Origin: Mytilus edulis
Taxonomy: Eukaryota
Direction of reading: 5' to 3'
Assembly: GCF_963676685.1 (NCBI RefSeq)
Contig: NC_092356.1
Location: forward strand, 54,002,001 to 54,066,000
DNA length: 64,000 bases
Under the pieces are notes generated by a model. It did not search any database, had not been told where the DNA came from, and saw only the letters and a list, made by a program, of their open reading frames with translations. The translations under genes and the position numbers were made by a program. Shown one piece after another: positions 3,002-64,000 of this stretch (position 1 is the stretch's first letter; every line of letters starts with the position of its first letter).

Positions 3002-3015
3002 GTATAGCAAGATAA

Positions 3016-6000
3016 CAAGTTCCCATAAGCAACAGAGTTAAGACACCAGCAGGACTTTTTGAAACACCAACTGAAACCCAGATTTTTATTAATGGAAATG
3101 AAACTTCAACACTTTTGGGCACTGGCTCAACCGTTTCCATCATAAGCAACAGCTTCTTTCGGGAACACATAGCAACACCTTTGAAGAACCTAGATACATT
3201 ACTGGACATCGCATGCGCTGATGGTCAGCAACTACCATATCTTGGATATACAGAAGTTGAATTGGGAATACCTGGACATAAGCAAACACACTCTTGCATA
3301 CTATTGGTAGTACCAGACAGCAGATACAACCAAGGAGTACCACTCTTGCTTGGAACCAACACACTTGCAGCCATCATGGATACTTTTGAACAAGAACTTG
3401 GACAAAGATTTTTACAGAACAGTTGTCTCACTACACCATGGTACCTTACATTCCGTTGTATTTTACTGCGTGAAGAAGAACTTCTGAGGAACAACAACAG
3501 ATTAGGAATCATAAAGAGCGCAGAAGTCAAGAATATTACTGTACCAGTATAAGGAGATACCATACTATCGTCCAACAGCTATGACGCACTCTACTGTATT
3601 TGCAAAAGACTTCAAGGATTTCGATATTGAGCCAGGACTTGTCAATTATCGTCAAAAACAGAACGGACCAATGACCATCAAGATATCCAATGTAACAACA
3701 AGAACCATTAACATTCCACCAAGAGCTATCATCTGTGAACTCCAACCCGTATCACTTAAGTATCAACATGATCAGCCATCAGAGAAAGAAGTAGTTAACA
3801 ACATGAATCAGATAGAGTTCACCAAGAGCAACCTAACAGATGAGCATTATGATCAAGGATATCAACTTGTTACTTCATATTTGGACCTATTTTCCCAGAC
3901 AGATGATGATGTTGGCCATACAGATATTGTTCAGCACCGCATAGATCTGACAGACGACAAACCATTTAAACAGAGATATAAGAGTATACCACCTTCAGCC
4001 TATGACGAAGTTAGAGCTCACCTTAGACAGTTACTTGATGCTGGGATCACCAGACCTTCACGCAGTCCGTTTGCATCCAACGTAGTCTTGGTGAGGAAGA
4101 AGGACAACAGCCTGAGACTGTGTGTTGATTATCGTCAATTAAACAACATCAGCAAAAAAGATAGCTAAAGCTTACCAAGAATAGAGGAGCTTCTTGATTG
4201 TTTTGTTGGGAGTACGTTTTTTAGTACTATGGACATGAAGTCTGGTTATTATCAGGTAGGTATATACGAGCCAAATAAGGAACGAACAGCATTCACCGTT
4301 GGACCTTTAGCTATAGGCTTCTACGAGTATAACAGGATGCCGTTTGGACTTACCAACAGTCCAGCCACCTATCAACGACTGATGGAGAACTGCTTAGCAG
4401 AGTATCACCTTAGGATCAGCTGCGTATTCATAGATGACATCATTGTATTTGGCAAGACATGTGAGGAACATCTACACAACCTAGAGCTAGTACTGGAGCG
4501 GATACGTCAAGCACATCTGAAGTTGGCACCGAAGAAGTGTTCATTCTTCAAGAGGAAGGTAAAGTTTGTCGGCCACATTGTATCTGAATCTGGAGTACAG
4601 ATCGATCCAGCAAAGACCGACAAAGTCACCACATGGCCAACTCCTACTACACCAGAGGATGTAAGACGATTTCTGGGATTTGTTGGGTATTATCGCCGCT
4701 TTATACGGAACTTCAGCCAGGTCAGCAGACCACTAACAGATATCATGCCCACACCTACTGGGAAATAGAAAGGCATAGGTAAACCAAAACCACAGAAAGA
4801 TTGGGATTGGGGAGATGATGAAGATAGAGCATGTACCATCTTGAAACAACAACATACTTCAGCTCCTATTCTAGGATATGCAGACAGCACCCTTCCGTAT
4901 GAGCTACATACTGATGCTTCCGGAACCGGTTTAGGAGCAGTCCGTTACCAGGAACAACATGGACAGACGAGAGTTTTCAGCTATGCCAGCAGGGGACTCA
5001 CCAAGTCAGAGAAGAGCTACCCGCCACACAAGCTAGAGTTTCTTGCCTTGAAGTGGGCCGTAGTGGACAAGTTTAGGGACTATTTGTATGGAACTAGATT
5101 TTCCGTCCTGACTGACAACAACCCGATGACGTATGTACTAACTACAGCCAAGTTAGATGCCACGGGACATCGATGGTTAGCTGGTTTAGCAGCATTTGAT
5201 TTCACAATACAGTACCGTCCAGGAAAGAACAACGGGGACGCTGATGCGTTGAGTCGATTACCCATCACCATGGAGTCTGTGTAGACTAAAGTCATAAAGG
5301 AACTCTGTAATTTGACAGGAATGAAGAAGACTCGCACTACTAGCTACCGTCCGCAGGGTAATGGTATGTGCGAGAGGTTTAACCGCACACTACTTGGAAT
5401 GCTAGGAACATTAGAGCAACACCAAAGGAGGAACTGGAAAGCCTACGTTGGACCACTAGTTCATGCGTACAACTGCATCAGACATGATTCCACCGGCTAC
5501 TCACCGTACTATTTGATGTTCGGCCGGACCCAAAGACTACCAGTGGACCTTGCATTTGGTTTGAGGAAAGATGCAACAGGATCTAACTACATCAAGGACC
5601 TGAAACAGAGGCTAGACCACGCCTACACAGTTGCTTCGGAAGCCTCCAAGAAGTCTCAGCTTAGACAGAAAGAAGGTTATGACACCAAAGTCCGTGGAGC
5701 TACAATACAGAAAGGCGACCGTGTTCTAGTCAAGATAGTTGCATTTGGAGAAGGAAAACATAAGCTAGCAGACAAGTGGGAGTATGACCCTTACACCGTA
5801 CTTGCTCAGCCTAATGCGGATATACCAGTGTTTACTGTACAGAAGGAAAATGGTGAGGAAAGGAAAAGAAACCTACATATGAATCTCTCACTACCCATCG
5901 GATATCTGACAGACACTGAACCACCAGTACAGAGAGAAAAACCCGTACCAAAACCAAGATTGAGGAAGAAACAAACCACACCTGTCACATCTACTAGACC

Positions 6001-6031
6001 GGAGATCCAAGGAGTACATTCGGATGAATAG
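3016..6031 (+). pseudogene. pol: Pol polyprotein (protease, RT, RNase H, truncated integrase) with stops and frameshifts
   Basis: LLGTGSTVS (protease, catalytic D>G); [25 protein letters not shown]; RMPFGLTNSPATYQRLM; FIDDIIV; LHTDASGTGLGAV; TDNNP..ADALSR; PQGNGMCERFNRTL; GYSPYYLMFGR. Stops at 3550, 4166, 4766 and 5282. Confidence 0.95.
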
Positions 6032-6544
6032 TCTGATGAGGAGCCACTTGAGCTTGTGATAGTGGAGCATGATGCTAGCAGTGACACTACCATCACTGAG
6101 GAACAGCACGATGACTCTACTGTGACCGATACAACGGAGGATTCTGATTCTGACGGTGACGCCTATTCACAGGAAGCTACAGATATTGAATTAAAGCAGA
6201 AGGGACAGAAACTGAGTCAGTTATTAGAAGCGCTTCGACAGTCAGTAGTGAAGATAGTCTGCAGGAGGATAGTCCTGATGAAGCTTCTACAGCATCTTCA
6301 CCTGAACCAGTTCGGCGGTCTACTAGAGAGAGACAGCAACCAGCCTGGATGGGATCTGGAACATTCGACTTATCCAAATCAGTTGGTACACCAGTTAGTG
6401 AAAGCGAGTGGTACAAGAAGGTCCAGTTTATTACATCGTTGGCTGGAACACATCTATTCCGGGATTTACAGTCGGAAGCAACAAAGACCATACTCGACAT
6501 TGTCAAGACACCGTCAGCCGAGAAATAACGAGACGTCATTTGAC

Positions 6545-6558
6545 AGCTGGGGGGATTA
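6545..6558 (+). promoter_or_regulatory. Polypurine tract before the 3' LTR
   Basis: AGCTGGGGGGATTA immediately before TGTGG. Confidence 0.7.
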
Positions 6559-8015
6559 TGTGGTTGACTGTATTTTATAGGTTTTACAGTAATTGTGTAT
6601 AATTTTATATTTAGTTTATTGTGTTGTATTTTGTATATTATATGATTTAAAATGATTAATTAAGGGTATAGTATATTAATTACAGATTGTAATTAGTTGA
6701 TTAGTCTACATGTATATATATGCTTTGTCCATTCTATTTACGTATTTGACAGTTGGACTTTTTGACATACGACATTTTCTACTGATTTGGGTAATCTTGG
6801 TTTGACTATAGTTTACTTCAAATGTTTTCTTTTTATGCTTCATTGGACCGCACACTTTCTTTATTTCAATTAGTCATTATATTTTGGCGCTATATTTCTT
6901 TTGTTCTTTTATGCTGGTCATCACTTTTCTATATACTGGTGGACATATTGATATGTACTTGATGTAATTCTAAGTTTGAACCTATATTCGTTCTTAGTTT
7001 TCTCTATTCTGTATTCAGGTCAGTTATATTTCTCTATTACTAATTATACGTTAATAGTCTAGATATTTATTATTTTACCTAGAATGACTGTTTAGAATGA
7101 AAAGGCCGATGTGTAAATGTTGAATGCGAGATGAATGCTTTAAAACGATATAAAATAGATTAAGTACAGTAAAGTAGTATCTGTTTGATTACATTTTTTA
7201 AGAGTCGTTATTTTCATATTTTCATAAATAAAGTACTTTTAACTAATTTGGTAAATTATTAATCTAATACACATTGTATGAGAATTCGAGTGTTCCGGAA
7301 TGAATGTGTTAAATACTTTTAAAGGTAAAGATATAAACATAATAACAGTTTTGTGTATTGATTGATTATTTTAGCTAAGAATACAAATCGCAAACAGGTG
7401 GTTTATTAGGTCCGGTTTATTACAGTAAAACATGGATTACAATTTATTTATTTGTTATACAGGTATATTTTAAGTAATCCTGGGACGATGTGAAATAATT
7501 TCCATATAGATAAATCAGGAGGCCTTTGCACTTCATGCAAGGTAAGCTAAGTGTTATTTTTGTAATGTTCGTATTTTTGTTTGTTGCTATTTTATGCTTA
7601 CGGCATTCATACAGCATGCAGCTATTGCTTTTAGTTTTGTTAATTTGTTTATGTTAAAGTTCGTGTTAACCGTTATTTTTCGTATATTAGACTTGTTTAT
7701 TTAATACGAGTCGTTAAGTGCATATGTACTAGACTATGTCAGTTACGCTTAACAATATAAGCATATTGTTGTAAATACATGCAGAACAGTTTTATTTATA
7801 TTATTAATAGTAAAAAATTTGTTTATCATAATACATGGATAGAAACCTATGTAGCAGATTATTTATTTGATGAACGGTCAGAATCTTACTATTGTATTTA
7901 TTTTGTAGGGTATTTTTTATATATTTGTTATTATCCTGAAGTTAGTCCAGAAATAAAAGGAACCACCTTCAACAAAAGTATTGTGTTTTAATAAGCCCTA
8001 GAAAGTGCTACTACA
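6559..8015 (+). repeat. 3' LTR (~1.46 kb, TG...CA)
   Basis: Starts TGTGG after the PPT and ends CTACA matching the 5' LTR end. The start is inferred from the PPT only. Confidence 0.8.
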
Positions 8016-14910: not shown

Positions 14911-14949
14911 AAACATTAACTATTTTAACTTCTCTGATTGAGTTCCATT

Positions 14950-15122
14950 AAAAGAGGGGTGAAAGAAACCAGAGGAACAGTCAAACTCATTGATCGAAAA
15001 GACATACTGACAACGTCATGGCTGAAAAATACAAAAGACAAAGAGACAAATAATAGTATAAAAGAAACAACATAGAAAACTATAAACTAAGCAACACGAA
15101 TCCCATCAAAAACTGGGGGTGA
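14950..15122 (-). mobile_element. Penelope-like 3' terminal fragment
   Basis: AAAGAGGG..GAAAGA.ACCAGAGGAACAGTCAAACTCAT shared with 23740, 35230 and 53143; at 23740 it is contiguous with PLE coding remnant. Confidence 0.7.
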
Positions 15123-17869
15123 CCTCTAGAACTCTAAAATAACTAGAATTTAAGACACAATAGACACCTTAGTGGCAATACCAACCTCATCTGCATATGG
15201 TATATATGAATATATGAAATATATGTGTAACACTTCCAAACGTTTCCATCTCCCCATACGTGTCTGATTTTCCCAAAACTTGTTTATTCTCCCCAAACAT
15301 GTCCCTAATATTTAGAATTTCACAAACTTGTCCGATTTCATAACCCCCCAAACGGGTCAACTGTTAAACGCCTATATGTCGTAAATGTCATCAATAACGT
15401 TTGCGGCAATTATTTGAAAGGGGACACAATTGATGAAGGGTTATTTATTAGCATTAGTTTGTTTAATACCGGTTGTTAATTATTATTATAATTGCATATT
15501 TAACCTGTTACATATAAAATACTTTTTGACTGAAATGTGCATTGTCCAGTTGCATGTATTTCATGATCATTATGACCGAGCAGACAAATAATTTAAGAAC
15601 AGTTGAATAAATTATTTTGTACTGATAAACTCAGATGGTGCCTTTTATATTTTCCCGAATATTGCACGGGATATATGAAGTTTAGGTTTAGAGTATCCTT
15701 AAAGACACACAAACAAGAGATATAACCATGATAACGTCCAGTACCAAATATTTCATGCATTATTTGAACGACATCATGTTAATAAGTAATACTGTAGATA
15801 GTTATTTTTTATCATACCTGGAATTAATGATTGTGCCGCAATTTTTACGGTTATTCGGGATTATCACTACTTGTGATTTAAATATGAAAAATTAAAGAGT
15901 AACGACCGTTATTTTTCAGTAAGACACTACTCTTCTCAATCTCCGTTACACAATACGGTTTTTAAATAAAGTTTTAAAAAAGCTTTCCAAAATATTACTG
16001 GTGGCACCATGAAAGACTGAATTGCTACGAAGGTTTAATTTAGATACGCAGTTGAACGGATATTCTCCATATACGAGGTATCTGATTTAATATCTACAAT
16101 TTAACTGATGCTGCTTATTTTTACATCCAACATAGCCGAACGGACGCCCCCACGATTACATAGGTTATAATGCCGTTTTAAAAAAGACCTATAATACCAA
16201 CGAATTACACTTATCACCGATTTCGTTCATGCATGAAAAACACGACAGGTACCACATGTGATGCAAGATCAGCGAATGTTCCAGAGCTTCTGAAATCATC
16301 CCCGTTTTTGGCGTGCTTCTTGCTGCTCTATCTTTAGTGTTCTGTATTGTGTATTGCTTACTGTTATATCTCTTTTTTTATCAATTTTCGTGGGGTTTGT
16401 TTTCTATGGAATAATCAGTATGTTTTCGACTTCGATTATCAATTGGTTTTTTTTCTGCCTCTTATCAGAAAGTCATTCAACGAAATAATCAATACCAATC
16501 ATATTGCATGGACATGGAGTGGTAACATTTTCAAATTTGTCAAAAGACACATTGATTATCTGACGTTGACGATAGAACACAAAATAAAATATTATTGTTT
16601 TACACGTAAAGCAAACATATATCGGGGTCTTCTATAGCCGACTATACAGTACTGGTTTGTATAATTGCTGAAGGCAGTACTGTTGCACTGAAATATTACG
16701 TTTTAGACCATGGGATATTTTTTTTCACTCGAAAAACATGTACATAAAAAAAACATTTACTTCCCAAAATGAAGATTAACGTTAAACGTAACGGTAATAA
16801 GTAACACAAAATAATGTAGGGTTGGTGATATCTTTTTATTACAAATATTCATTTATCTTCTATGATCTTGTATATAAGGTTCTAGCATCTTTTTACATCT
16901 TGCCAAAAAGGAAATATGTCTGTAAACATTTTTGATCATACTTACTCGACAAAATGAAGGCATACTCGAAAACACACTATCAAATCACTCGAAAAACACG
17001 ATCTCAGTCGTACAATACCTACTGTACAAAAATCAAATTGATAGGCCTGATGAGTGGTGTCACTATACATGTTAAGGTAGATTCACTGGTTACCGCGATC
17101 TTGGATTGTACAAGTCTTACTACAGATTTGCAATTTATGTGTCAGACTGCTTAACTGTAAACAAAAAAAATGGTAATTCATTGAATTCTACAAACTGATT
17201 AAATAAAATCCGTTATTTATGTTTTTACTTGTGGCAAGAAAACAGGTTCGTTGAGGCCATTTTTTCTTTTTATTTTCTTAAAGCATATTATTACACCTAT
17301 CTTCCAATATCTTATTTTAAACTGCTATATCATGGATTTCTTTTTATTTACATCACAGTGTTTTATCGTGAACAGTGTATTCAAATGTGGGCAATTTTGC
17401 ACGATATGTAGCTTGAAAAATAGAACGTTGACCTTTACTTTTATTATATTTTTGAAAAAAATGCATGGAAAAATCTTGATTTTGGTAGTTAACACATTTA
17501 TCGGAGAAAATGTATACCGATCATCCATCTTGAAATAGCGGACGTTCAGGTACAGCATTTTATATCATACCAGCATTTACCAGGTGAAAATATGACATTT
17601 TTCGTATCAAATGTTAAACATTAGATCACACTAAAATAACCCAAGTTATAGGAAAAGAATCCTACCCGTCTTAAGAGATATCAATTTCATACGAATAACA
17701 ATATGTTGTTCATGACAAGTACAGTTTTGGTAATTAATCTCATTTGGTGGTGCCATAATCATTTTTTTTTTATATTTTGAATGCTTCCGGGAATATATCA
17801 ATGACTCCATATTCCATGATAGTCAACCAAACCACGAAGGCATCACTAAAATATCTTTTTTTTTTAAAT

Positions 17870-22192: not shown

Positions 22193-23739
22193 GAAGTCCA
22201 ACGGAAGATACTAAGACCTTGTACAAGATTAATATTCCGTATCAACTTCACAAATAACACACGATGGTCTTGAAGTAAAGATTCTAGATACTGACGTTGT
22301 TTATCGTCTTTATTACGTATTATAGTGTTCTTTTATTTCTAAATTATTACTTTTATTGTTAAGTCTATTGCTGGTATTAACCATTTGACGTGGTTCGTTC
22401 CTTATACATCCTGTCATTGTGTTATTGTGCTATCGTAAAGTTTTGTATTCTTGTCTTTTGTTTCTGCTAATATTCTTTTCCTTTTTTTTCTTTGTTGATG
22501 TATTTGTTTTTATAGTGATTAAGATAATAACACAATGTTGACGGTTAGACTTCTATTTTTGACATTTTCACCTAGTATGTCTATTTGTTTTGTACACACA
22601 ACGTTGTCAAGATAATTGAATCAAAATGCGATAACTAACTTGACAACGCAATGAGTTGGAAAGAAGAATAATGTAGAAGTCAGATTTGACGAACGAATAG
22701 TTATAAAATCATTGTTTGTTTACACCTTATATCTAGCTGAGAACCTCCTTGTTGTATCATATACTTCATGATAGTTAAGCTGAGCTATCAAAATGCGATA
22801 ACAAACTTGATAACGCAAAGAGTTGGAAAGAAGAATTACTGTAGAATTCCAATTTGACGAACGAACCGTTATAAAATCATAATCTATAGTGCACCTGTTT
22901 TATAATTATATACAGACTTTTGGTGAATCATTCCTCGTGATTGATGTGCATCATAAATAAAGTATGCACTGCAATGAAATATAGGATTAATTAACTACAA
23001 CTGCCAAATTCAAGGGAATATTTTTCGGATGTGACGTACTATAATTTGGTGATATTTCACCTATACTTTATATTGATTTGCCATTAACAGCATTACAGAT
23101 TCCACTAGTGGAGTAGAAACACCGTAGAAATATAGGTCACTTGAATTTTAAGGTGTTTATTTTCTTCTTCCCTAGTTTTCTGTGCATTGTGTTGGCGACT
23201 AATCTTTATAAGTTTGTTACTGAGTTTTAATTCTTTGTATCTTCCCACTGTTTAAATATGCGCACCAAATTCTTTATAACTTATCAAAATTAATCCTGAT
23301 CAGCCTGGCTTTAACTGGAATTATAATCGGCAATATGATGTTTTGTCCAGTGGAAATCAAAACAAGTTGGTTTCATGATGTTTTGGAAACAAACAAATGA
23401 CCAATACCAAATCAGTAATAGAGAATATATGCTTTAGCAGTAATAATAAAACCCTTCAGTATCTTATGCTTTCCTGATTAGACCATTTTCATATTACCAA
23501 CTTTTAGCTCCGGGTTCTACAATTATTCGACAGGTTACCTATTCTGAGGTGGGACATCCTAGTTCTCGTTCAATTACGAGCAACAAAAGTTAAGTCAAAT
23601 AAATGATCGGTGCAGTTTTGGGGGAAATTTACTTTTTTCCGATGATTTAATCAAGTTGAAAGCATTTAAAAACTTTACTTTCCCTCAAAATTGTACCAAT
23701 TAAATTCTTGAATATACTGATTAACGTTGCTCTTGCGTA

Positions 23740-24170
23740 AAAGAGGGGCGAAAGATACCAGAGGAACAGTCAAACTCATCAATCGAAAACAAACTGACAA
23801 CGTCATGGCTAAAAATGAAAACGACAAACAGACAAATAACAGCACACAAAAAAACAACATAGAAAACTAAAGACAGCAACACGAACCCCAACAAAAACGG
23901 GGGGTGAGCTCAGGTGCTCCGAAATGGTAGGCAGATCCTGCTCCACATGTGGCACCAGTCGTGTTGCTCATGTTATGACAGACCCGGTAAATAGTCTAAT
24001 TCGGTAGGTAACATTCATGAAAAGGGAGGGGGATTGTAGTTACGAAGCAAGAAATATATCTGATATCATCTGTTAAACGGTTATTCCATAACGGTCAACC
24101 AACTCGTGATGACGTCCGTAAAATTTACGAAGGGATGATTTCAACTTTACCATTTGGAACTCTTGGTGTA
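23740..24170 (-). mobile_element. Penelope-like element 3' end
   Basis: Minus strand encodes VKLKSSLRKFYGRHHELVDRYGI followed by the same 3' tail as 60000-60310. Confidence 0.8.
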
Positions 24171-24459
24171 AGCATGACCGAGTACCAGGATGTCCAACCA
24201 CAGAGAAGGTAACCTGTCGAAAAAATATTAAATTCGGAGTCAAAAGTCGGTAAAATGAAAATGGACTATTGAATTACAAAAACTCGATTATCAATATATA
24301 AAATTATTAAGAGGGTGTGATAAACAAACGTGCGATCTTTAATAGTGTGAACAAAATATGGATAGTAAATCCGGCAAATTGTAACAAACCCCTGTGCCCT
24401 GATGCTACATTGCACAAATTGTTCGGCAAATTGAATTTTAATAATTGACGATTGATACG

Positions 24460-39434: not shown

Positions 39435-42400
39435 ACATAAGATAAGAATAAAATAAGAAAACTTTATTTTGATTCGGCATAGGTACAAATAAGCAACACA
39501 AGCTCTAAGGAGCTTTTGACCAAATATAAAAACATATAAATAACATAAAAACAGTGCATTTTGACATATAAAAACAACCTGTAATATGAAGATGGAATCT
39601 CACATACATAGCATGCAATAAAAATATGCAACAAATTCGAATGAAGTAAAAACATGCTTGACCAGAGCAACCAAAAGCACAAACATAATAAACAGCTCAA
39701 GAATTATCTGCAAGCAGAACAGCGACATTCCAAACCGTTCCAGGACTGAACAAGACTTTTAAAATGTGAAAAACTGTTTTCAGTCCTGAAATGGTTTGGA
39801 AGGCTGTTCCATAAAGTAGCAGCAGCAAATTTGAACGATTTTTTACCGTAACGGGTTGACTTTACCTGTGGAATTTCAAGAATATTTACATACCTGAAAG
39901 AATATTTAGATTTTTTGACATTCCCCAAATTTTGTAAGCACACAGGAGCTATTTTGTTTATAATTTTAAAAGTTTCTAGAGCCATTGTTCTTATCCGTCT
40001 GATCTGCAAGGAGGGCACCTTAGCTTTAAGTAAAAGGTCCTCGTAGGAGCTGATAAAGTCCTCATACACAAAACGGAGTGCTCTTTCCTGCACCTTTTCT
40101 AGTTTTTTTTAATATTTCTCAGTGCAAAAATGCCATGCCAAAGGGCAAAAATTACTAAGAATATAGTAAGTTTACTAAGTCTATCTAAAACTGAGCCTAA
40201 ACGTTTTAAAACATTTAATTGATGTGATGCCTTCCTACAGATTGAGCTGATATGAACATCAAAATTTAGCTGGTAGTCTATTTCAATGCCTAATAATTTT
40301 ACTGTTTTTTCACAAGTGAGGTTCGAATTTTGAATATGTATAGATGGGTTCTTTTCAAAGGTCTTTTTGCCAACAGCCAAAACTTGAAATTTGTCAGGAT
40401 TTGCTTGCATTTTATTCACCCTGAACCACTCAATAAGTATTTTTGAATCAGATTCCAGGGTTGAAATTAATAAATCGAAATCTGGAGTACAAAAAGACAA
40501 AGTATTGTCATTTGCATAGTTATATAAACTACTATTTTTAACAAAATGAAAAATATCATTTATAAATATGTTAAACAACAGTGACCCTAGTATCGAACCC
40601 TGTGGTACGCCTTTATGGATGTCAGCCCAACCACTCAGAACATTGTTGACTTTAATTTGCTGTTTACGATTTGATAAATAGGACTTTAAAAGAGCAACTG
40701 CATTGGGGGTTAAACCATATGCTGATAATTTATCTAGCATAATATTGTGAGGCAGGCAGTCAAAAGCCTTAGAAAGATCCATTAGTACTGCTGCAATGTA
40801 CTGGTTTTTATCAAGAGCTTCACGCCAGTCTTCTAACACTCTGAGAAGTGTGGTCTGACAGCCATGTCCACGTCTAAATACACACAAAAATGGATTAAAT
40901 ATTTTATCAAAATAATCAGTTAATTGAATTTCATATATTTTTTCAAAGATTTTAGAAAATATGGGTAAGACACTAACTGGTCTATAATTTGTTTTTAATA
41001 ATGGGTCACTCTTTTTATGAAGGGGGGTTACTTGGGCTTCTTTAAGTTTATCTGGGAAACAATTATTATCAATTGACAAATTTACAAGAGTTGTCAGCTG
41101 TGGTGCAATATATGATTTACAATTTTTGACTATTTTTGCTGGAATACCATCAGCTCCTGTAGCTTTCTTTATGTTTATTCTATTCAAAAAAATTTCGACA
41201 TTTTCATTTGATACTTTTTTAAATTCAAAATCAAAATTATACTTTCTGTTATCCAAAATTTCTTTTATACTCGGGTGATTTGAGGGGTCATATACAACAT
41301 CTGCTCCAATTTTGTCTGCTACTGTGGAGAAAAAATTATTAAAAACATTTGAAACTTCATTTGAACAATTAACAATTTTGTCATTTTCACATAATAAAAT
41401 TTTTTGCTCTCCACTGTTCCCCTTTTTTGAGAAAAATGGTTTGACTGTTTTCCAAAAATCGCAAGATTTTGAGCCACCAGAGCAACGTTCTAAAAAGTAT
41501 ACTTTTATTGATTTTCTCTTTATCTTTGTTACCAAATTTCGTTGTTTTCTAAATTTCTCCCAATTTTTGTCACTCCGGTTTTTAGTATATTGTGAATAAA
41601 GCATTTGTTTTCTATATATGGCCCCTCTCAGTTCTTTATTCATACATGGAAGTTGTTTATTTCTTTGACCCCTAGATTTTACAGGTGCATGTTTATTTAA
41701 TATGTTTTTAAAATTTTCTTCATAATCATCATATATACTATTTAAATCTTTCTCAGTACAATTTTCTGAAATCTTTATTTTCTTTAAATCATTTGTAAAT
41801 TCATCATATCAAAAGTTTTGTAACTTCTATATGTTACATCCCTGCGTTTTTGTGCAGGTAAATTTCCTTTCACAACTGTTGAAATAATATTGTGAGTCAC
41901 TAACACCATTTGGACTATTTATTGTTTTAAAACACAATTTTTTTTTATTTGTAATAATGACATCTACAAGGGATGGATTACAACCCTTTTTAAAACATGT
42001 TGGGCCTTTAACCAGTTGGGACAAGTTGAAAATATCACACATATCATGTAGAGTCTGAGATTTTTCAGCAGACAACATGTCAAAATTTAGGTCACCAAAA
42101 ATAATAATATTGTCATATGACACAAAACATTTATCTAGTGATTTTGTAAAATTTTCAATAAAATCATCATTTTTCATGGATGGAGGCTTGTATGCTCCCA
42201 TAATAAGCCATTTGGCATCATTTATATAAATTTCATAGCAAATATTTTCAAGTATATCAGATTCGAAACATTGTTTTCTACTTGATGGAAAGTCTGATTT
42301 AATCAGGGTAAGTAAGCCACCGCCGTACTGATTTCTGTCACGCCATTGTAATTTATAACTTTCAACTTGAAATAGGTTGTCTTGAAAGGTACTGTCCAAT

Positions 42401-43150
42401 TTTGATTCGGCAATCATCAGTAAGTCAACTATATTATCTGTGAGTAGTTCTTTTACCTCATCAAATTTGTATCTGAGACTGTTTATATTAATATATGCCG
42501 CAATAAAGTTCTTTGGATGCAGACGTCTGGTCTCTCTCAAGTCTTGAAATAAAAGTTTGTTTACACCGGAAGTAGAGTTAGACGATAGACTGTCATTTGG
42601 TGCGTTTGATTCCTCGTTAAAATCAATAAAATAAGAATCGCTAAAATCGGGTAGATAACATATTTTACAGAACCAGCTGTCAGTTGTACTTCCAAGTAGT
42701 TCATATTCGTTTAGGGATAGGTCTATACATTTTAGATGGAACCACACGTTACAATCATCGCACTGGATTGCCCGTTGGTTCTTTCTGACTCCCTTCTCGC
42801 ATGTCCCACATGGAAATTTTACTGGCCCCGGATTTAAAGAAATATCTCCTGATAGTAAGAGTAATCTTATACAAATAGACGTTGTATATTTACAGTTCGT
42901 AGTCAGTTCTTTATTTTTGTAACACGTATGACGGGCCTGTTTGATTTGTACTCTGGGGTGCAGTAGATCTATTAAAAGTTCTCTATGAAGGTATGTTTGA
43001 ATCGACCTTGCTGCATAAAAACCCAGATCTTCTATATTATATTTAATGTTGGTGTTTACTGGCTCAGTTGGTGATGCCAGTAGACGGTTGAAAATGGTAA
43101 ATATTGTGAGAGCTGTTAAAACACCGCCTTCACCTGCCGCCATCTTTTAT
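39435..43150 (-). mobile_element. Non-LTR retrotransposon, CR1/L2 group, near full length
   Basis: PHD-APE-RT-CxCxxC coding region; 3' UTR ending AATAAA plus (TCTTAT)-like tail at ~39437-39468. Confidence 0.93.
39704..43143 (-). pseudogene. LINE polyprotein: leader, 2A-like peptide, PHD, APE, RT; about three frameshifts
   Basis: LLLLSGDISLNPGP; C4HC3 PHD; YININSLR, AESKLD, GDLNFD; NYRPVSVLP, MDLSKAFD, GVPQGSILG, YAND (YADD mutated); LWNSLP..CRCSAC. Frame breaks near 41893, 41805 and 40160. Confidence 0.93.
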
Positions 43151-44247: not shown

Positions 44248-45105
44248 TAGATAATTATTAGGTGCCAATACAATATGTTAAGCTCTATAGTTTAGATAAT
44301 GATTACTAGGTGCCAATACAATATGTTAAGCTCTATAGTTTAGATAATGATTAGGTGCCAATACAATATGTTAAGCTCTATAGTTAAGATAATGATTAGG
44401 TGCCAATACAATATGTTAAGCTCTATAGTTTAGATAATGATTAGGTGCCAATACAATATGTTAAGCTCTATAGTTTAGATAATTATTAGGTGCCAATACA
44501 ATATGTTAAGCTCTATAGTTTAGATAATGATTAGGTGCCAATACAATATGTTAAGCTCTATAGTTTAGATAATAATTAGGTGCCAATACAATATGTTAAG
44601 CTCTATAGTTTAGATAATGATTAGGTGCCAATACAATATGTTAAGCTCTATAGTTTAGATAATTATTAGGTGCCAATACAATATGTTAAGCTCTATAGTT
44701 TAGATAATGATTAGGTGCCAATACAATATGTTAAGCTCTATAGTTTAGATAATAATTAGGTGCCAATACAATATGTTAAGCTCTATAGTTTAGATAATGA
44801 TTAGGTGCCAATACAATATGTTAAGCTCTATAGTTTAGATAATGATTAGGTGCCAATACAATATGTTAAGCTCTATAGTTTAGATAATTATTAGGTGCCA
44901 ATACAATATGTTAAGCTCTATAGTTTAGATAATTATTAGGTGCCAATACAATATGTTAAGCTCTATAGTTTAGATAATTATTAGGTGCCAATACAATATG
45001 TTAAGCTCTATAGTTTAGATAATGATTAGGTGCCAATACAATATGTTAAGCTCTATAGTTTAGATTATGATTAGGTGCCAATACAATATGTTAAGCTCTA
45101 TAGTT
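44248..45105 (+). repeat. Homogeneous 45-bp minisatellite, 19 copies
   Basis: Unit TAGATAAT(G/T/A)ATTAGGTGCCAATACAATATGTTAAGCTCTATAGTT. Confidence 0.97.
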
Positions 45106-45140
45106 TGATTTTGCTATTTCAAGGTTCAAACACATATCAA

Positions 45141-47739: not shown

Positions 47740-49280
47740 AACAGTAGTCCCTGTTTTGACCAATACAATATCGACAAAAGAATTTAACTATCCATTGCTA
47801 TGATAACAAAAGTTATTGATTGAACTTCACCCTCATAGACATAGACATTACAATCATGATGACAGATTATTTATTGATTGACCTTAAACCCTGGTAACAG
47901 AAGTCATTGACTTATTAATATCCTGGTTACAGGTCAATGTCTAACTTTAACCCTAAAGACGAAATTCGCCTAAATACAGATGACTAAAATCATTGATTTG
48001 CCTATAGCCTGGAATCAGAAGTCATCGATTGACCTTAACTCTGATAACGGGAATTCGCCTAAATACATGTGACAGACGGGAGTGATTTACCTTTACCCTG
48101 ATAGAAAAGGCCGTGAATGACCAATATCCTAGTGACAAAAGGCAGTGATTGACCAATACCCTGGTGACAAAAGGCAATGATTGACCAATACCCTGGTGAC
48201 AAAAGGCAGTGATTGACAAATACCCTGGTGACAAAAGGCAATGATTAACCAATACCCTGGTGACAAGAGGCAGTGATTGGCAAATATCATCTGGTGACAA
48301 GAGGCAGTGATTAGCAAATATCCTCTGGTGACCATAGGCAGAGATTGTACAATGCCCTGGTGACAAAAGGTAGTAATTGGCCGATACCCTGGTGGTAAAG
48401 GGCACTGATTGACCAATACCCTGGAGGCAAAAGGCAATTATTGACAAATCGTTTGGGACCAATTGTGGTAATGATCTATACTCTTGTGATAGAAGGCAGA
48501 TTGACATTAACCCTGATGATAAAAACGCCAATTTCGCTTTTACCTGGTGACGAGAGACAGTAAATGAACTATGACCAGATGACAGAAGGTAGTAAATGAC
48601 CCGTACATTGGTGACAGAAGCAAGTGCTTGACATATTTTCTGATGACAAAAGACAGTGGTTGACGAAAACATGGTGACCGACAGTGGCGAATGATCTATA
48701 CCCGTGTGATGGAAGGCAGTGATTGACCCATACCTTGATGACAGAAGGCAGTGGTTTACCTTTACTCTGATGACAGAAGACGCTGATGGAACTATTACCT
48801 GGTGACAGAATGCGTGATTGACCTATACCCTGATGACTAAAGGTGATGAATGACCCACACCTTTGTGACAGAAGGCAGTGATTGACGTAACAACGGTAAC
48901 CGACAGTGGCAAATGACCCATACCTTGATGCCAGAAGGCAGTGATTGACCTATACCTAGGTGAAAGAAGGAAATTCTGCAGTGATTGACAATAAAAAGTA
49001 AAAACACAAAAATACTGAACTCCGAGGAAAATTCAAAAAGGAAAATCAAAAATCAAAAGGCAAAATAAAAAGTCCAAACACATCAAACGAATGGATAACA
49101 ACTGTCATATTCCTGACTTGGTACAGGCATTTTCTAATGTGACCGTATTTGGTGAAGGATCTATACCCGTGGGACAGAAGGTAGTGAATGACCCATAATA
49201 CCCTTATGACAGAAGGCAGTGAATGACCCAAACATTGCCACCAGAAGCTTAAGACAATAATTAACATTTACCCTGAAAAC
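47740..49280 (+). repeat. Degenerate ~32-bp minisatellite interrupted by a family B fragment (48990-49140)
   Basis: Core unit GTGATTGACCAATACCCTGGTGACAAAAGGCA, best preserved at 48145-48270. Confidence 0.88.
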
Positions 49281-51669
49281 AAAGCCGCTGATCGCTAGTC
49301 ATTTAACGTTCTGTGATAAATGTTTCATAGAGGTAATCTAGGGATCTTTTTATGCAAATAAGAATAAGTATAAAAATGTTGGCAAACAAGGAAAAAAACG
49401 AATGATCTTTGTAAATTACTTGTAATAAAAGATTGTTATTTTTTAGAACAAAAATGCCGTAAAATTTGAAAACAAGTGAGCTATACGTGTTACAGATGGT
49501 ATGCTCAGCTCATTATGATTCTAATTAATTTCCATGCACATACTTACACTGAGAGGATCGCCGTACATGATAGAAAATATTTTGTTCGACTTGTTCTTGG
49601 TAGCTGCAATCATTTTGTTCGTGTAATTAAACCATCCAGTATACAAGTTACATGTATCTAAATAAATTGAAAAGTTATCATCATTGTTATATTAATATCT
49701 AAATGGTATTTACGTTGCACCGATGCCCTGGAATATTAAAAAACAAGTGTGAGTTATCTTACCTGCTCACAAGGAAAAACCTGACGTAGAAATGGGACCT
49801 TATGCTCTTAACACCTACCCTCGCCTGGTATATTGATAAGACTCAACTGCCATTTGTAGTCTTCAAGCCTGCAGGTGGTTAGTGTAAAACTTGGTTTCTA
49901 AAATACTTTTATTGACAGAATATATTTATATAGTTCTTGTTTTATAATTAAAATTAAAAACTTGATATAAAGTTATCAATTGGGCTTTGCTCATTGTTGA
50001 AGGCCGTACGGTGACCTATAGTTGTTAATGTCTGTGTCATTTTGGTCTCTTGTGGACAGTTGTTTCTTTGGCAATCATAACACATCTTCTTTTATATACA
50101 TAATAGTTTACTGAACTTGGAAGTCACTTGGAAGATCATTACTGTCGGTTTGATAAATTTTTTAAAGACTAAAAGAAGGCAAACATTGAAAAAAGTAAAA
50201 CATGAAAGTAAGAATAAATGAACAACACAAATGACAAAAGAAAATCCGTGTTGCTTTATTGAACCAGAAATGTAGTTATTAGATATCATTTAAATATGAA
50301 CTTTCATTTTAGAGATAAATATATGCATTTTACTCTTATAGTCTTGAATTCATATAAAATATTAGCAATATAACACATACTAGAATATACTCTGCACTGT
50401 GTCCTCATTTGTGTATAATCGAGTGCCCAATACCAATCTTCATCTTTCAAACTAACTAGTTTTAGACGACGGTAAAAAACGTTGAAGTGTGCGTTTGTGG
50501 AACACAATTCTACGTCAGAACGTTAAGCAAAGGAACGGCTATCTTGATTGGAATCATTTTTATATCAAGGCTGAGATAAACAAATTAAATGATAGAATTT
50601 TTATATTTTGGTAATTGGAGTTGGATAATTTATAAAGGAATACAGACAGATGACTTCCAAATGTCGATTAGACACAATGACATTGTCAGTTCAAGGATGC
50701 AGGTATCCAGCTACCCCATAGGACAGTTAAACGACTTTAAACTCGAGGTTTTCTCTGGTAATGGAAATAATATGAATCATACGCAGTGAATCAAGGTGAT
50801 AATACTTTCCAGATCATTTATTCATAATACCGATTTCGTTGGTGGGGTTCGTGTTTCTCAGTTTTTAGTTCTCTATGATGTGATTTGTGTACTGTTGTTT
50901 GTCTTTTAGGTTATGTCGCTTTTTCGTGTTTTTGTTGCCACAATCATTTTTTTTTCCATTTTTGCGTTTGAATATCATTTTTGTTTCTTTCGCCTCTCTC
51001 TCTTTCTCCGAATAGATATGTATATTAAGGGGGTACCCAACATTATACCCCCCAAAAAAAGCCTGTCGTGTAATTTTTCTTATTTTTCTCTCATTGATAA
51101 ATTAGTCCAAGCTAAACATCTTGTAAAATTTTAAAAAGATATGAACCGTTGGTTTAAAAGCTATGGCAACTCAAATATGGCATCTTTTAGTACCGTTAAT
51201 TTTATTACATGCTAGTATCGGCCAAATTTGGAGTATATGTTGATTATTTTACAAATTAATCTTAAATTGACAATATCATAGTTAATAATGATAACTGAGG
51301 CGAATATCAGTTCACTGATAACCTTAAAGTTTACTTGTAAGTTTTTTATTCTGGATTTAAATTTTTGTCCGAACTAAAAAAAAATGGGTATCAAAGTCAG
51401 CCATAAAAATGAATGTAATGGTTCTATTATTTGAAGAAGACATTTTTTTTTTAAATAAAATGTGTCGTTTAATTTTTTTTTAAAACTAACCATTTGGAGT
51501 TCTATACCAGTCGGTTCTTCTTGCAAACATTTATAAAAATTTAACCGTCAGATTTTTTTGTATTGAAATTTAAAAAAATACGCACACACCCTCAAATTGG
51601 CTTAATAAATGAGAGCAAAATCCATTTTGATGGTACATAATGGCCATTACTTTTTAGTCTTTTGATCTA

Positions 51670-53455
51670 GGCCTTAGGTATCAAAACTATTGAAATTTTG
51701 TTACGTATCAATATTTTGAATATAAGGAGGACATGCTGGCACCCTAAATTTATGTGCAACAAAAATTTGTTGCTTTTGTAGTATTGTAATATTGCTGTCC
51801 ATAGTATTATACATTGAATCCTGACATAAAAAATATGGCTGACTTACTATGCGGGTATACTGATTTACAAATTAAAGTCCACATATGGTCAGATTTGGTC
51901 AATTTGGTCAAATCATTTTGTTGTACAAGTCAGCTTGAGGTATCAAAACTACTGAAATTTTGTTACGTATCAATATTTTGAATAAAAGGAGGACATGCTG
52001 GTACCCTAAATTTATGCGATCAAAAATTTGTTGTCAGTGTATTGCAATATTGCTGTCCATTGTATTATACATTGAATCCTGACATAAAAAATATGGCTGA
52101 AGTACTATGCGGGTATATATGGTACATTGTATATAGATTTACAAATTTAAGTGCACATATGGTCAGTTTTGGTGGAAACGGTCAAACAATTTTGTTGTGC
52201 AAGTCAGCATGAGGTATCAAAACGACTGAAATTTTGTTACGTATCAATATTTTGAAAAAAAGGAGGACATTCTAGCACCCTAAATTTATGCAAAAAATTT
52301 TTTGTTGTTATTGTATTGCAATATTGCTGTCCATTGTATTGTACATTAAATCCTAACACAAAAGAATATGGCTGATTTACTATACGGGTATACATGGTAT
52401 ATAGATTTACAAATTAAAGTGCACATATGGTCAGTTTTAGTTGATGCAGTCAAATAATTTTGTTGCACAAGTCAGCTTGAGGTATCAAAACTACTGAATT
52501 TTTGTTTTGTATCAATATTTTGAATAAAAGGAAGACATGCTGGTAACCTTAATTTATGCAAACAAAATTTTGTTGTTATTGTATTGCAATATTGCTGTCC
52601 ATTGTATTATACATTGAATCCTGACATAAAAAGATGGCTGATTTACTATATGGGTATATAGATTTACAAATTAAAGTGCAAATATGGTCAGTTTTAGTTG
52701 ATGCAGTCAAATAATTGTGTTGTACAAGTCAGTATGAGGTATTAAAACTACTGAAATTTTGTTATGTATCAATATTTTTAATAAAAGGAGGACATGCTGG
52801 CACCCTTAATTTATGCAAACAAATATTTGTTGTTATTGTATTGCAATATTGCTGTCCATTGTATTATACATTTAATCCTGACATAAAACATATGGCTGAT
52901 TTATTATGCGGGTAAATAGGATATATAGATTTACAAATAAAAGTGCACATATGGTCAGTTTTGGTCAACGTTATCAAATAATTTTGTTGCACAAGTCAGC
53001 ATGAGGTATCAAAACTATTAAAATTTTGTTACGTATAAAAATTTTGAATAAGAGGAGGACATGCTGGAATCCTAAATTTATGCGAACAAAAATTTGAAAA
53101 AATATGGCTGATTTACTATGCGGGTATATAGATTTACAAATAAAAGAGGGACGAAAGATACCAAAGGGACAGTCAAACTCATAAATCTAAAACAAACTGA
53201 CAACGCCATGGCTAAAAATAAAAAAGACAAACAGAAAAACAATAGTACACACGACACAACATAGAAAACTAAAGAATAAACAACACGAACCCCAAAAAAG
53301 TGCGTATACGGTCAGTTTTAGTCAACACGGTCAAATAATTTTGTTGTACATATCAGCAAGAGATATCAAAACTACTGAAATTTTGTTACGTATCAATATT
53401 TTGAATAAAAGGAGGACATGCTGGCACCCTAAGTTTATGCGAACAAAAATTTGCA
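51670..53455 (+). repeat. ~265-bp tandem array (about 6.5 units) with Penelope-like tail inserted at 53143-53297
   Basis: GGTATCAAAACTA motif near 51677, 51939, 52213, 52481, 52738, 53005 and 53361. Confidence 0.92.
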
Positions 53456-57995: not shown

Positions 57996-58019
57996 AAACA
58001 CTTTGGACTGAGCCACACG

Positions 58020-58530
58020 TAACATGCAAAAAAACAAAATTGAGAGCCTAGATTCCATGTTTAATCACATGGGACCTAGCCTCTCGGAACAAGCGAAACA
58101 GGAATTGAGAGCCTTGTTCCCATGTTTAATCACATTGAACATAGCATCTAGAAACATGCAAAAACAAGCGAAAAAGGAATTGAGAGCCTAGATTCCATGT
58201 TTAAACACATAGGACCTAGCCTCTAGGGACAAGCGAAAAAGGAATTGAGAGTCTTAGCTTGTTTCTATGTTTAAACAAATGGGACATAGCCTCTAGGAAC
58301 ATGCAAAAACAAGCGAAAAAGGATTTAAGGGTTTAGATTCCATGTTTAAATTAATGGATCCTAGTCTGTAGGAACAAGCGAAAAAGGAATTAAGGGCCTA
58401 GATTCCATGTTTAAACACATAGGACCTAGCCTCTAGGAACAAGCAAAAAACAAATTGAGAGCCTAGTTCCCATGTTTAACCATTTGTGACCTAGCAGCTA
58501 GGAATAAGCCTAAACGGAATTTAGAGCTTT
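58020..58530 (+). repeat. ~65-bp minisatellite, about 8 units
   Basis: GAATTGAGAGCCTAGATTCCATGTTTAA..ACAT.GGACCTAGCCTCTAGGAACAAGCGAAAAAG. Confidence 0.9.
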
Positions 58531-58534
58531 AATC

Positions 58535-59762
58535 TACCTTAGCCGTTTTTGGCACAACTTTATGGAATTTTGTATTCTCAATGCTCTTCAACTTTGTGCT
58601 TGTTTGGCTATATAACTGTTTTTATATGAGTGTCACTGAAGAGTCTTATGTAGACTAAACGCGCGTCTGGGGTACTAAATTATAATCCTGGTACCTTTGA
58701 TAACTATTTACACCACTGGGTCTAAGTCACTGCTGATAGACGTTTCGTCTCCGATGGTATCACCAGCCCAGTAGTCAGCACTTCGGTGTTGACATGAATA
58801 TCAATTATTTGCTCATTTTTATAAATTTCTTGTTTACAAAACTTTTAATTTTTCGAAAGACTAAGGATTTCTTATCCCAGGAATAGTATGACTTAGCCGT
58901 ATTTGGCACAACTTTTTGGAATTTTGTATTCTCAATGCTCTTAAACACTGTACTTGTTTGGCTTTATAACTATTTTGATATGAGCGTCACTGGTGAGTCT
59001 TATGTAAACAAAACGTGCGTCTGGCGTACTAAATTATATTCCTTGTACCTTGATAACTATTTACACAACTGGGTCGATGCCGCTGCTGGTGTACGTTTCG
59101 TTCCCGAGGGTATCACCAGGCCAGTAGTCAACACTTCGGTGTTGACATGAATATCAATTATGCGGTCATTTTTATAAATTTCTTGTTAACAAAACTTTTT
59201 CGATAACTTAGGATTTTTTTATCACAGGAATAGATTACCTTAGCCGTATTTGGCACAACTTTTTGGAATTTTGGATCCTCAATGCTCTTCAACTTTGTAC
59301 TTGTTTGGCTTTATAAATATTTTGATATGAGCGTCACTGATGAGTCTTATGTATACGAAACGCGCGTCGCGTACTAAATTATAATCCTGGTACCTTTGAT
59401 AACTATTTACACCACTGGGTCGATACCACTGCTGGTGGAGGTTTCGTCTCCGAGGGTATCACCAGCCCAGTAGTCAAAACTTCGGTGTTGACATGAATAT
59501 CAATAATGTGGTCATTTTTATAAATTTCCTGTTTACCAAACTTTGAATTTTTCGAAAAAAATAAGGATTTTCTTATCCCAGGCATATATTACCTTAGATG
59601 TATTTGGCACAACTTTTTGGAATTTTGAATCCTCAATGCTCTTCAACTTTGTACTTGTTTGGCTTTATAAATATTTTGATATGAGCGTCACTGATGAGTC
59701 TTATGTAGACGAAACGCGCGTCTGGCGTAATTAATTATAATCCTGGTACCTTTGATAACTAT
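58535..59762 (+). mobile_element. Non-LTR retrozyme: ~3.5 tandem ~350-nt units, each with a type I hammerhead
   Basis: Hammerhead cores start at 58636, 58990, 59337 and 59691 (spacing 354, 347, 354). Confidence 0.9.
59685..59728 (+). ncRNA. Type I hammerhead ribozyme, intact core
   Basis: GCGUCA CUGAUGA GUCU-UAUGU-AGAC GAAA CGCGCG UC| UGGCGU; predicted cleavage after C59722. Confidence 0.9.
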
Positions 59763-59811
59763 ATACTAGTTCAGTGATAATGAACGCCATACTTTTTTTC
59801 CAAATTGTACC

Positions 59812-60312
59812 TTACATTTCTATGTAGCAACATTCCAACGCACCTGCATAAGTAGTATATATCTTGCAATTGATACAATATTCCTGTGCTTGTATTTCCT
59901 ATAATGATTTCCTTGATAGAGGGTTGCTGATCACAAGGAAGCTTTTAAACCTTAAACCAAGCTAGAGTTCAAAATGTAGAAGTTGAAATCATCCCTTCGT
60001 AAACTTTACGGACGCCATCACCAGTTGGGTGACCGTTATGGAATAACCGTTTCACAGATGATACCGGATATGCTCCATATGTTGAAGCTACAATCCTCTT
60101 CACTTTTCACCATGAATGTGACTTACCGAATTAAACTATTTACGGGATTTGTAATAACATGAGCAACACGACGGGTACCACATGTGGATCTGGATCTGCT
60201 CAGTGTGGAGTCTTTTATACTAATATTTGTCCGTTTGTCTTTTTGTTTATTAGCCATGGAGTTGTCAGTTTTATTTTCTATCTATGAGTTTTACGTCCCT
60301 CTGATATCTTTC
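59812..60312 (+). pseudogene. Penelope-like RT C-terminus and 3' tail remnant
   Basis: FLCSNIP..VYILQLIQYSCACISYNDFLDRGLLITRKLLN..KLKSSLRKLYGRHHQLGDRYGITVSQM. Confidence 0.85.
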
Positions 60313-60578
60313 GTCACTGTTTCATTGCATCAAGACCCTCGTACATGGACGACATTGCTAGATCACAAAGGACAATGATTGTAACCGAGGACGAAGAACA
60401 AGAAGCCATTGACACTATATTTTTGCCTTCTTTATCTCCAGACATGACCCTATTTAACATTTCTGGCATGTCATTGGTAGAAAAATCAACTGCAAAGATA
60501 CACCTCAGCAACATCTTGTCGATTTAAGAGTTGTAATTATTGATGAATTAAACAAATGTCCTGAGCTAAAGTTCAGAC

Positions 60579-63339: not shown

Positions 63340-64000
63340 TGTGTGATAACATTAGTCATACATGAAAGATGTGATAACAATAGTCATACATGAGAGGTGT
63401 GATAACATTCATCATACGTGAGGTGTGTAACAACATGCATTGGTCATATATGAGAGATGTGATTGCATTAGTCATACATGATAGATGTATTAACATCAGT
63501 CATACATGTGAAGTGTGATAACATGTTACACATGAGAGGTGTGATAACAGTAGTCATGTACGAGGTGTGTACCAAAACAAGGCATATATGAGAGGTGTGA
63601 TAACATTAGGTCATACAGGAGAGATGTGATAACATAAGTCATACATGTAGATGAGAGGTGTTATAACATTAGTCATACATGAGAGGTGTTACAATATTAG
63701 TCATACATGTACATAAGTGGTGTGATAACATTAGTCATACATGAGAGGTGTGATAACATTAGTCAAACATGACAGGTGTGTTAACATTAGTCAAACATAA
63801 GAGGTGTTATAACATTAGTCATACACGAGAGATGTGATAACATTAGTAATACATGAGAGATGTGATAACATTAGTCAAACATGAGAGATGTGATAACATT
63901 AGTCATACATGAGAGATGTGATAACATAAGTCATACATGAGAGATGTTATAACATTAGTAATATACATGAGAGATGTGATAACATTACTCTTACATGAGA
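63340..64000 (+). repeat. 28-bp minisatellite running off the window end
   Basis: Unit GTGATAACATTAGTCATACATGAGAGAT. Confidence 0.95.

Follow-up and report, generated by a model that had tools for sequence, protein, structure and literature searches.

How does a short, non-coding hammerhead repeat come to be copied in tandem into a mussel genome, by which enzyme, and from which form of its RNA? The question is raised by an array of hammerhead-bearing units in the window, as we call the whole 64-kb stretch of DNA analysed here. In Mytilus galloprovincialis, about 5,000 type I hammerheads lie in 350-390 bp repeats, whose RNAs cleave themselves (kobs ~0.1 per min for a mussel repeat), are ligated by RtcB and accumulate as abundant circles (Cervera and de la Pena, 2020; PMC7229834); this work, like the other publications below, is cited from its accessible parts. 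According to the accessible text of a 2020 review, animal retrozymes carry no conserved motif that points to an autonomous element, and both their mobiliser and the priming of their circles were open at that time (PMC7761336). We find that the window array is an ordinary, decayed member of this known class that holds a specific, testable clue to how the class is copied: a 70-nt stem-loop in common with Naiad, a clade of Penelope-like elements, placed directly after the point at which the insertions of the family end.

The window array and its decay

The array occupies about 58535..59766 on the forward strand, with 3.5 units, a period of 354 and 87% matches by tandem-repeat detection, in agreement with the preliminary description, which had read it as a tandem of ~350-nt units. 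Its 5' edge corresponds to unit position 224 and its 3' edge lies 44 nt past the last cleavage site; GC is 0.37 at window 58001-60000, and there is no stop-free stretch of at least 180 aa within the array. Four hammerhead-like motifs, with GUC triplets at 58665-67, 59019-21, 59366-68 and 59720-22, are spaced 354, 347 and 354 nt apart, just as had been described. A set of four working ribozymes that all carry CGCGCG was not confirmed. Copy 1 (58630..58675, +) has TAAA for the core GAAA and is predicted to be inactive; copy 2 (58984..59027, +), with CUGG for CUGA, AAAA for GAAA, changes in stem II and in stem III, where the palindrome reads CGTGCG instead of CGCGCG, is likewise predicted to be inactive; and copy 3 (59331..59374, +) keeps its core, is 2 nt short in the 3' strand of stem I, bears a stem II mismatch and is predicted to be impaired. 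Judged by its sequence, copy 4 alone (59685..59728, +) is an intact type I hammerhead, with predicted cleavage after the GUC at 59720-59722. In the proposed check against Rfam Hammerhead_1, copy 4 reached 33 bits (E 5.5e-6, below the gathering score of 34), copy 1 came next with 25.9 bits, and copy 3 was lowest with 20.8 bits (E 0.057), whereas copy 2 is absent from the matches at E<=10; at gathering scores, Rfam gave no match anywhere in the 64-kb window. Minimum-energy folds of the isolated hammerheads did not yield the active form, an uninformative test.

Since release of a monomer needs two cuts and one hammerhead is intact, the array is unlikely to be a source of circles, a point on which the earlier reading was at least incomplete; as such a source, it is likely dead. 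The active-locus definition of Li et al. calls for two consecutive units with complete hammerheads (Li, Clavereau and Pollet, 2026; 10.64898/2026.07.22.740005), and the window array has no such pair.

An abundant family of a known class

Across the genome searched (1.37 Gb, 14 large contigs), the 40-nt motif of hammerhead copy 4 has 6,608 exact copies against 0 for a reversed control, so the hammerhead stands far above chance, and a 26-nt motif downstream of the cleavage site has 12,593 copies. By its sequence features the window array belongs to the known mussel non-LTR retrozymes, and the class assignment made beforehand, including its prior report from mussels, was right. In common with the retrozymes of M. 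galloprovincialis are the type I hammerhead, tandem repeats in the range of 350-390 bp, thousands of copies, low GC and the lack of an ORF; the 355-nt window family may or may not be identical with a mussel clone of ~353 nt (Cervera and de la Pena, 2020). The features also agree with the general description of metazoan non-LTR retrozymes, in which tandem units measure 150-450 bp and GC is below 50%. In garbled figure text, a 375-nt retrozyme of mussel (PMC4918200) appears by eye to have the same hammerhead core, and over long stretches it resembles a sister family found here. Mytilus is accordingly the most likely host. The window array differs from the published mussel elements in being a mosaic with a single intact hammerhead. 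Predicted folds of mussel retrozyme circles were published, in the accessible text, without a shuffle control (Cervera and de la Pena, 2020), so that self-pairing is a weak criterion. The circular fold was no better than shuffles for either a near-consensus unit (z -0.3) or a window unit (+0.8; 40 shuffles each).

The mosaic is apparent from linked alleles. Units of the array lie 3.7-8.0% away from the family majority sequence; linked alleles typical of one subfamily, present in 12 of 40 other arrays, occupy its first two units, and those of another, present in 21 of the 40, occupy the remaining 1.5 units on the 3' side, with an approximate switch of haplotype at 59229..59274 (+). The two 3' units have no derived change in common and are 8.1% apart. 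Neighbouring units in other arrays differ at two or fewer of 14 common sites, compared with 3 and 3 in the window array. By this allele pattern the array is a mosaic of two subfamilies, which contradicts the earlier reading of the 3.5 units as one circle copied in rolling fashion; its unlike halves would require either a template switch between two circles or later recombination.

A fixed 3' end and scattered 5' ends

Insertion ends were compared in a sample of 78 arrays chosen by hammerhead alone; they come from the loci at which the hammerhead motif has its first 100 exact matches along contig 1. The 3' end falls 37-45 nt past the cleavage site in 68 of the 78, and the 5' ends are spread over the unit. 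A second sample was anchored on the post-cleavage motif; its 70 new loci, added to those already sampled, took in most of the first 100 matches to that motif, and with internal units and matches near a locus edge excluded, 74 terminal copies were left. Among them the rate of 5' stops is flat at 0.003-0.004 per nt and the median length is 205 nt; the first cleavage site is crossed by 66 of the 74 and the second by 15. A pile-up of 5' ends at the cleavage site was considered and not borne out in the array samples, in which these ends are scattered. Of 72 copies at risk, 6 stop no more than 6 nt from the first cleavage site, about twice the background, a hint that some templates are cut.

As far as end positions can tell, a fixed 3' end with scattered 5' ends is what reverse transcription leaves when it begins at one site and drops off at random. 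The preliminary description had spoken of partial ends; these are not arbitrary, the 3' end being fixed directly before the hairpin in common with Naiad, which that description had not noticed. In the window array, 59723..59766 (+) spans the stretch between the cleavage site and the point at which the family ends, which would place the start of reverse transcription at about 59760-59766.

Rolling copying fares better as a habit of the family. Units differ by 2.43% within arrays (50 pairs) and by 6.80% between arrays (3,823 pairs), and 68% of derived changes are in common within arrays compared with 9% between them; such low divergence within arrays is expected from repeated copying of one template, and gene conversion could also produce it. 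There is no gradient of divergence along the arrays (3.5-4.2% by unit rank). No target-site duplication, an optional mark of the class, was seen at the window array, and for the 74 insertions the longest flank matches follow the shuffled expectation.

A stem-loop in common with Naiad elements

Starting from a reverse transcriptase (RT) fragment in one array flank, we reached a young element for which many intact ORFs, each of about 1,000 codons, are present. This partner element, at locus L174, forms 3,370-bp tandem units with a 995-aa ORF in which we read a GIY-YIG-like N-terminus, CxC and DKA motifs and a C-terminal RT, the motifs that mark the Naiad clade (Craig et al., 2021; PMC8557442). 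Pfam, run on the same ORF, returned RVT_1 only, below cut-off, and no GIY-YIG match. The element also fits the Naiad criteria in its partial tandems with a pseudo-LTR, its place in a size range of about 3.4-4.4 kb and its lack of a canonical hammerhead: CUGANGA occurs on neither strand, and a permuted hammerhead core was likewise not found. It is ~49% identical to a second Naiad family, whose 5' end resembles by eye the published Naiad_Mgal and whose stem-loop is a variant with an inserted hairpin, so that the exact partner of the retrozyme could be either.

Positions +45..+115 of the retrozyme are 86% identical to the 70 nt that open the Naiad unit (80.6 bits, compared with 29.2 bits for the best of 50 shuffles), and no second match between the two was found outside the stem-loop below E 0.5. 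In contrast to the Naiads (Craig et al., 2021), the retrozyme has no ORF, and this 70-nt stem-loop is all that the two have in common. It lies in the Naiad 5' UTR directly before the ORF, and recurs in four retrozyme families, among which hammerhead stem III takes three forms, with its core 54-70 nt after the cleavage site. The window array holds a first copy at 58712..58774 (+; 79% to the Naiad 5' end), a second at 59065..59135 (+; 80%) and the best at 59411..59481 (+; 83%), the last a candidate binding site for the Naiad protein.

Naiad insertions end at the same place relative to the stem-loop. Their ends lie at -6..+5 of the stem-loop start in all 30 RT-anchored loci (three near-duplicates), and 28 of 30 motif-anchored Naiad matches end at -5..+1, the other two being tandem junctions. 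A Naiad 3' end precedes 21 of 25 Naiad 5' ends, and the genome holds 8,279 exact copies of the Naiad 3' motif compared with 135 of the stem-loop core. Retrozyme and Naiad have in common both a cis element and the geometry of their insertion ends, which supports the earlier suggestion of a Penelope-like mobiliser; the retrozyme is likely mobilised in trans by Naiad protein, as this comparison of sequences suggests.

The element in common is, by its pattern of sequence change, a structured RNA. In 14 hand-chosen sequences from five related families, from which the structure was also drawn, the 22-pair stem-loop has 96.8% of 308 cells paired, compared with 40-49% in slid controls, and a covariation of 0.164, compared with 0.081 shuffled and at most 0.075 slid; three pairs show two-sided changes, a count that 196 of 500 shuffles reach and that is not significant by itself. 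Outside mussel the evidence is that of published Naiad sequences, where, by eye, the invariant internal-loop core opens at least 13 Naiad consensus sequences among the matches listed (corals, bivalves and hemichordates), and compensatory changes are visible at the 5' ends. An Rfam search with the retrozyme and Naiad stem-loops gave no known family and no ribozyme. A pseudoknot was considered and set aside, its extra helix not being kept in oyster Naiads (by eye), as was an HDV-like or twister ribozyme, for which, on inspection, strand order and core letters do not fit the consensus.

Several further forms were seen. Three retrozyme families beside that of the window have the Naiad stem-loop: one with the window family's hammerhead and another tail (L035, L104, L234-L243), another whose stem III is AUGCGCAU and whose site is AUC (L004/L015:2449-3235, L068, L195), and one with stem III AAGCGCUU, a UUC site and a period of ~351 (L216-L233, with at least 8 units in L233). 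In a chimera at L229:1410-1570, hammerhead and tail come from the window family and the stem-loop from the fourth family, with the junction at the start site. At L174:1465-1540, a retrozyme piece of the fourth family directly abuts a Naiad tandem where the latter is truncated at its 5' end, perhaps through a template switch. Full-length Naiads occur as near-identical 3,370-bp head-to-tail tandems (L174, 99.9%; L244/L245; G000:C6:87605812-87612590; C11:17800941-17804934), an arrangement that fits copying from tandem or circular RNA. Mini-arrays of the Naiad junction and stem-loop, with periods of 83 bp and 201 bp (G000:C10:3660635-3660839; C12:78783752 onward; L248, C1:68128853-68129341), may be non-autonomous Naiads that form tandems without a hammerhead; the 201-bp unit contains none.

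A candidate mechanism and its competitors

We consider it probable, on the strength of the stem-loop and the insertion ends, that a Naiad RT binds the stem-loop, starts just 5' of it and copies round the retrozyme circle, and that the window array is a decayed copy from two subfamilies. The Naiad protein would nick AT-rich DNA and begin reverse transcription inside the retrozyme RNA, about 41 nt past the hammerhead site; it would then pass the ligated junction and continue round the circle, with a steady drop-off of ~0.3% per nucleotide. With the binding signal 3' of the start, the signal would be omitted from the end of the new copy, and a linear monomer left by self-cleavage would be copied for 41 nt and no further. 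Circularisation would make each monomer a complete, endless template, so that in this geometry a circle would be needed.

A biochemical precedent exists in PAc, a Poseidon element of Anolis carolinensis. Its purified protein begins reverse transcription within the RNA, 111-118 nt into the ORF and at an AC-rich stem-loop; it requires the first 172 nt and, on the 3' side of the start, ~54 nt or more. The genomic ends of PAc coincide with the start sites (Frangieh et al., 2024; PMC11167929). The retrozyme end likewise lies at the foot of an AC-rich stem, with ~65 conserved nt 3' of it. The two systems are alike in an internal start downstream of a hammerhead, an AC-rich stem, RNA required (in PAc) or conserved (here) 3' of the start, and genomic ends that mark or would mark that start. 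They differ in that PAc is an autonomous element of the Poseidon clade with two start sites within its ORF (Frangieh et al., 2024), whereas the mussel retrozyme would be a non-coding parasite with one site and a partner without a hammerhead.

The same assays lend weight to the strongest competitor, which keeps the Naiad machinery and the start site and takes as template uncleaved linear multimer RNA from the arrays, with circles as a by-product; we regard it as unlikely, if a serious contender. In the anole system insertion was unaffected by hammerhead mutants, and RNA that had not been cut served as the main substrate; in vitro the hammerhead could be dispensed with (Frangieh et al., 2024). 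Suitable sources exist among the mussel arrays, 18 of the 78 sampled carrying at least two intact hammerhead cores that could supply multimers, and a mosaic source would easily give a mosaic array. RNA-seq is compatible with it as well. We used four runs. In three stranded ones with the same coded species label, by which they are matched to the organism, the sense excess over the stem-loop region equals that over the hammerhead region (ratio 0.87-1.04) and runs on across the cleavage site, falling roughly 12-19%; antisense reads in these runs follow the genomic 3' skew (0.25-0.28, with a sample expectation of 29/82). The fourth run, X24, has no strand excess. Read ends do not pile up at the cleavage site in these data. 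At the level of the family, the reads imply sense RNA that covers the whole retrozyme unit evenly, and since short reads look alike for circles and for uncleaved multimers, this flat excess fits both templates. What tells against multimers is, first, that insertions are short (median 205 nt), so arrays would shrink in each round without circles, and yet arrays of at least 7 units exist; second, that 75-95% of mussel retrozyme RNA is reported to be circular (Cervera and de la Pena, 2020); and third, that intact hammerheads are kept in four families at a similar distance from the start site. In run X23, one linked variant set makes up about 60-75% of the sense reads at L052:1700-2054, so that one circle type or locus dominates expression there.

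Much less probable than the multimer template is that the stem-loop is a Naiad promoter or RNA-processing element kept for expression, the fixed 3' end being an RNA end and the copying enzyme perhaps that of another retroelement. The stem-loop does sit in the Naiad 5' UTR before the ORF, where Penelope-like elements have internal promoters (Craig et al., 2021). Yet an RNA cut at +44 predicts templates of unit length and 5' ends piled at +45..+60, and no clear pile-up is seen there (2 of 30 at risk), nor do RNA-seq read ends pile up at the +44 end; the two-sided changes favour an RNA structure over a DNA promoter, and the Rfam search found no ribozyme at the stem-loop. Least credible of all is a satellite produced by unequal crossing-over from a Penelope-like end with no RNA-mediated insertion, since such a route, although proposed for Xenopus retrozymes (Li, Clavereau and Pollet, 2026) and compatible both with the window mosaic as a recombination product and with target-site duplications no more frequent than chance, does not explain a fixed 3' end and steadily scattered 5' ends at thousands of dispersed sites, and since the unit is not a Naiad pseudo-LTR: it matches only at the 70-nt stem-loop of an element without a hammerhead core.

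Beyond this locus, we lean, less firmly than towards copying of the retrozyme circle by a Naiad RT, to a broader view in which a conserved 5' RNA structure sets the internal RT start of Naiads across animals, and mussel retrozymes are circular parasites that have fused this signal to a foreign hammerhead and need the circle. With the same geometry, the signal lying 3' of the start, Naiads themselves would be copyable only from tandem or circular RNA.

Relation to published work

The retrozyme-Naiad signal is apparently unpublished: we did not find it in the literature for mussel, although subscription papers and supplements could hold it. The fixed 3' end found here, and the start site and named partner proposed here, do not appear in the accessible description of the M. 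galloprovincialis retrozymes (Cervera and de la Pena, 2020), and the accessible account of Naiads does not describe a 5' structure and makes only a general remark on a link to retrozymes (Craig et al., 2021). The closest parallel is in Xenopus, where a preprint ties retrozymes to Penelope-like pseudo-LTRs, arguing from co-occurrence and homology of ends; an argument for Penelope-like machinery, and terminal sequence in common with Penelope-like elements, are features of both cases (Li, Clavereau and Pollet, 2026). That study is vertebrate-focused and, in its accessible parts, includes no mollusc and no start sites, and the homology it describes is to hammerhead-bearing pseudo-LTRs, in contrast to the discrete 5' signal of a hammerhead-less Naiad in mussel.

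Given a named partner whose ORFs are young and intact, a signal of 70 nt and a candidate start placed to within a few nucleotides, the question of how retrozymes are copied becomes testable in vitro. If true, the proposal would explain why these RNAs circularise and would give a recognition element to a retroelement clade that is among the most abundant in invertebrates, and a short RNA tag that directs the copying of circular RNA into DNA could serve as a tool.

Surroundings of the array in the window

A decayed Naiad 3' fragment (ORF end and 3' UTR, ~84% identity) lies at 59797..60326 (+), 30 bp past the array. Since Naiad matches occur in 29 of 304 background windows, its adjacency is no evidence for a partnership, and it is probably an independent insertion. 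A template-switch chimera of the array and this fragment was considered and is not supported, with 4 of 126 3' flanks abutting Naiad, 3 of the 4 in antisense, against a high background. Other 5'-truncated Naiad 3' fragments in the window lie at 23738-24171 (-), 53139-53299 (-), 14949-15126 (-), 50839-50999 and 16239-16377.

The window also holds broken gag/RT/integrase-like frames of an LTR retrotransposon at ~1750-6580 (+), which by their motifs we take to be Gypsy-like, and two stop-free frames of 569 and 439 aa at ~40100-43150 (-), presumably of a LINE-type element, which they resemble. Tandem repeats of other kinds are a minisatellite with a 65-75 bp unit at 58088-58527, which abuts the 5' end of the array, a 257-bp array of 5.3 copies at 51676-53090, and 45-, 32- and 28-bp arrays at 44248-45106, 48069-48886 and 63342-64000, respectively.
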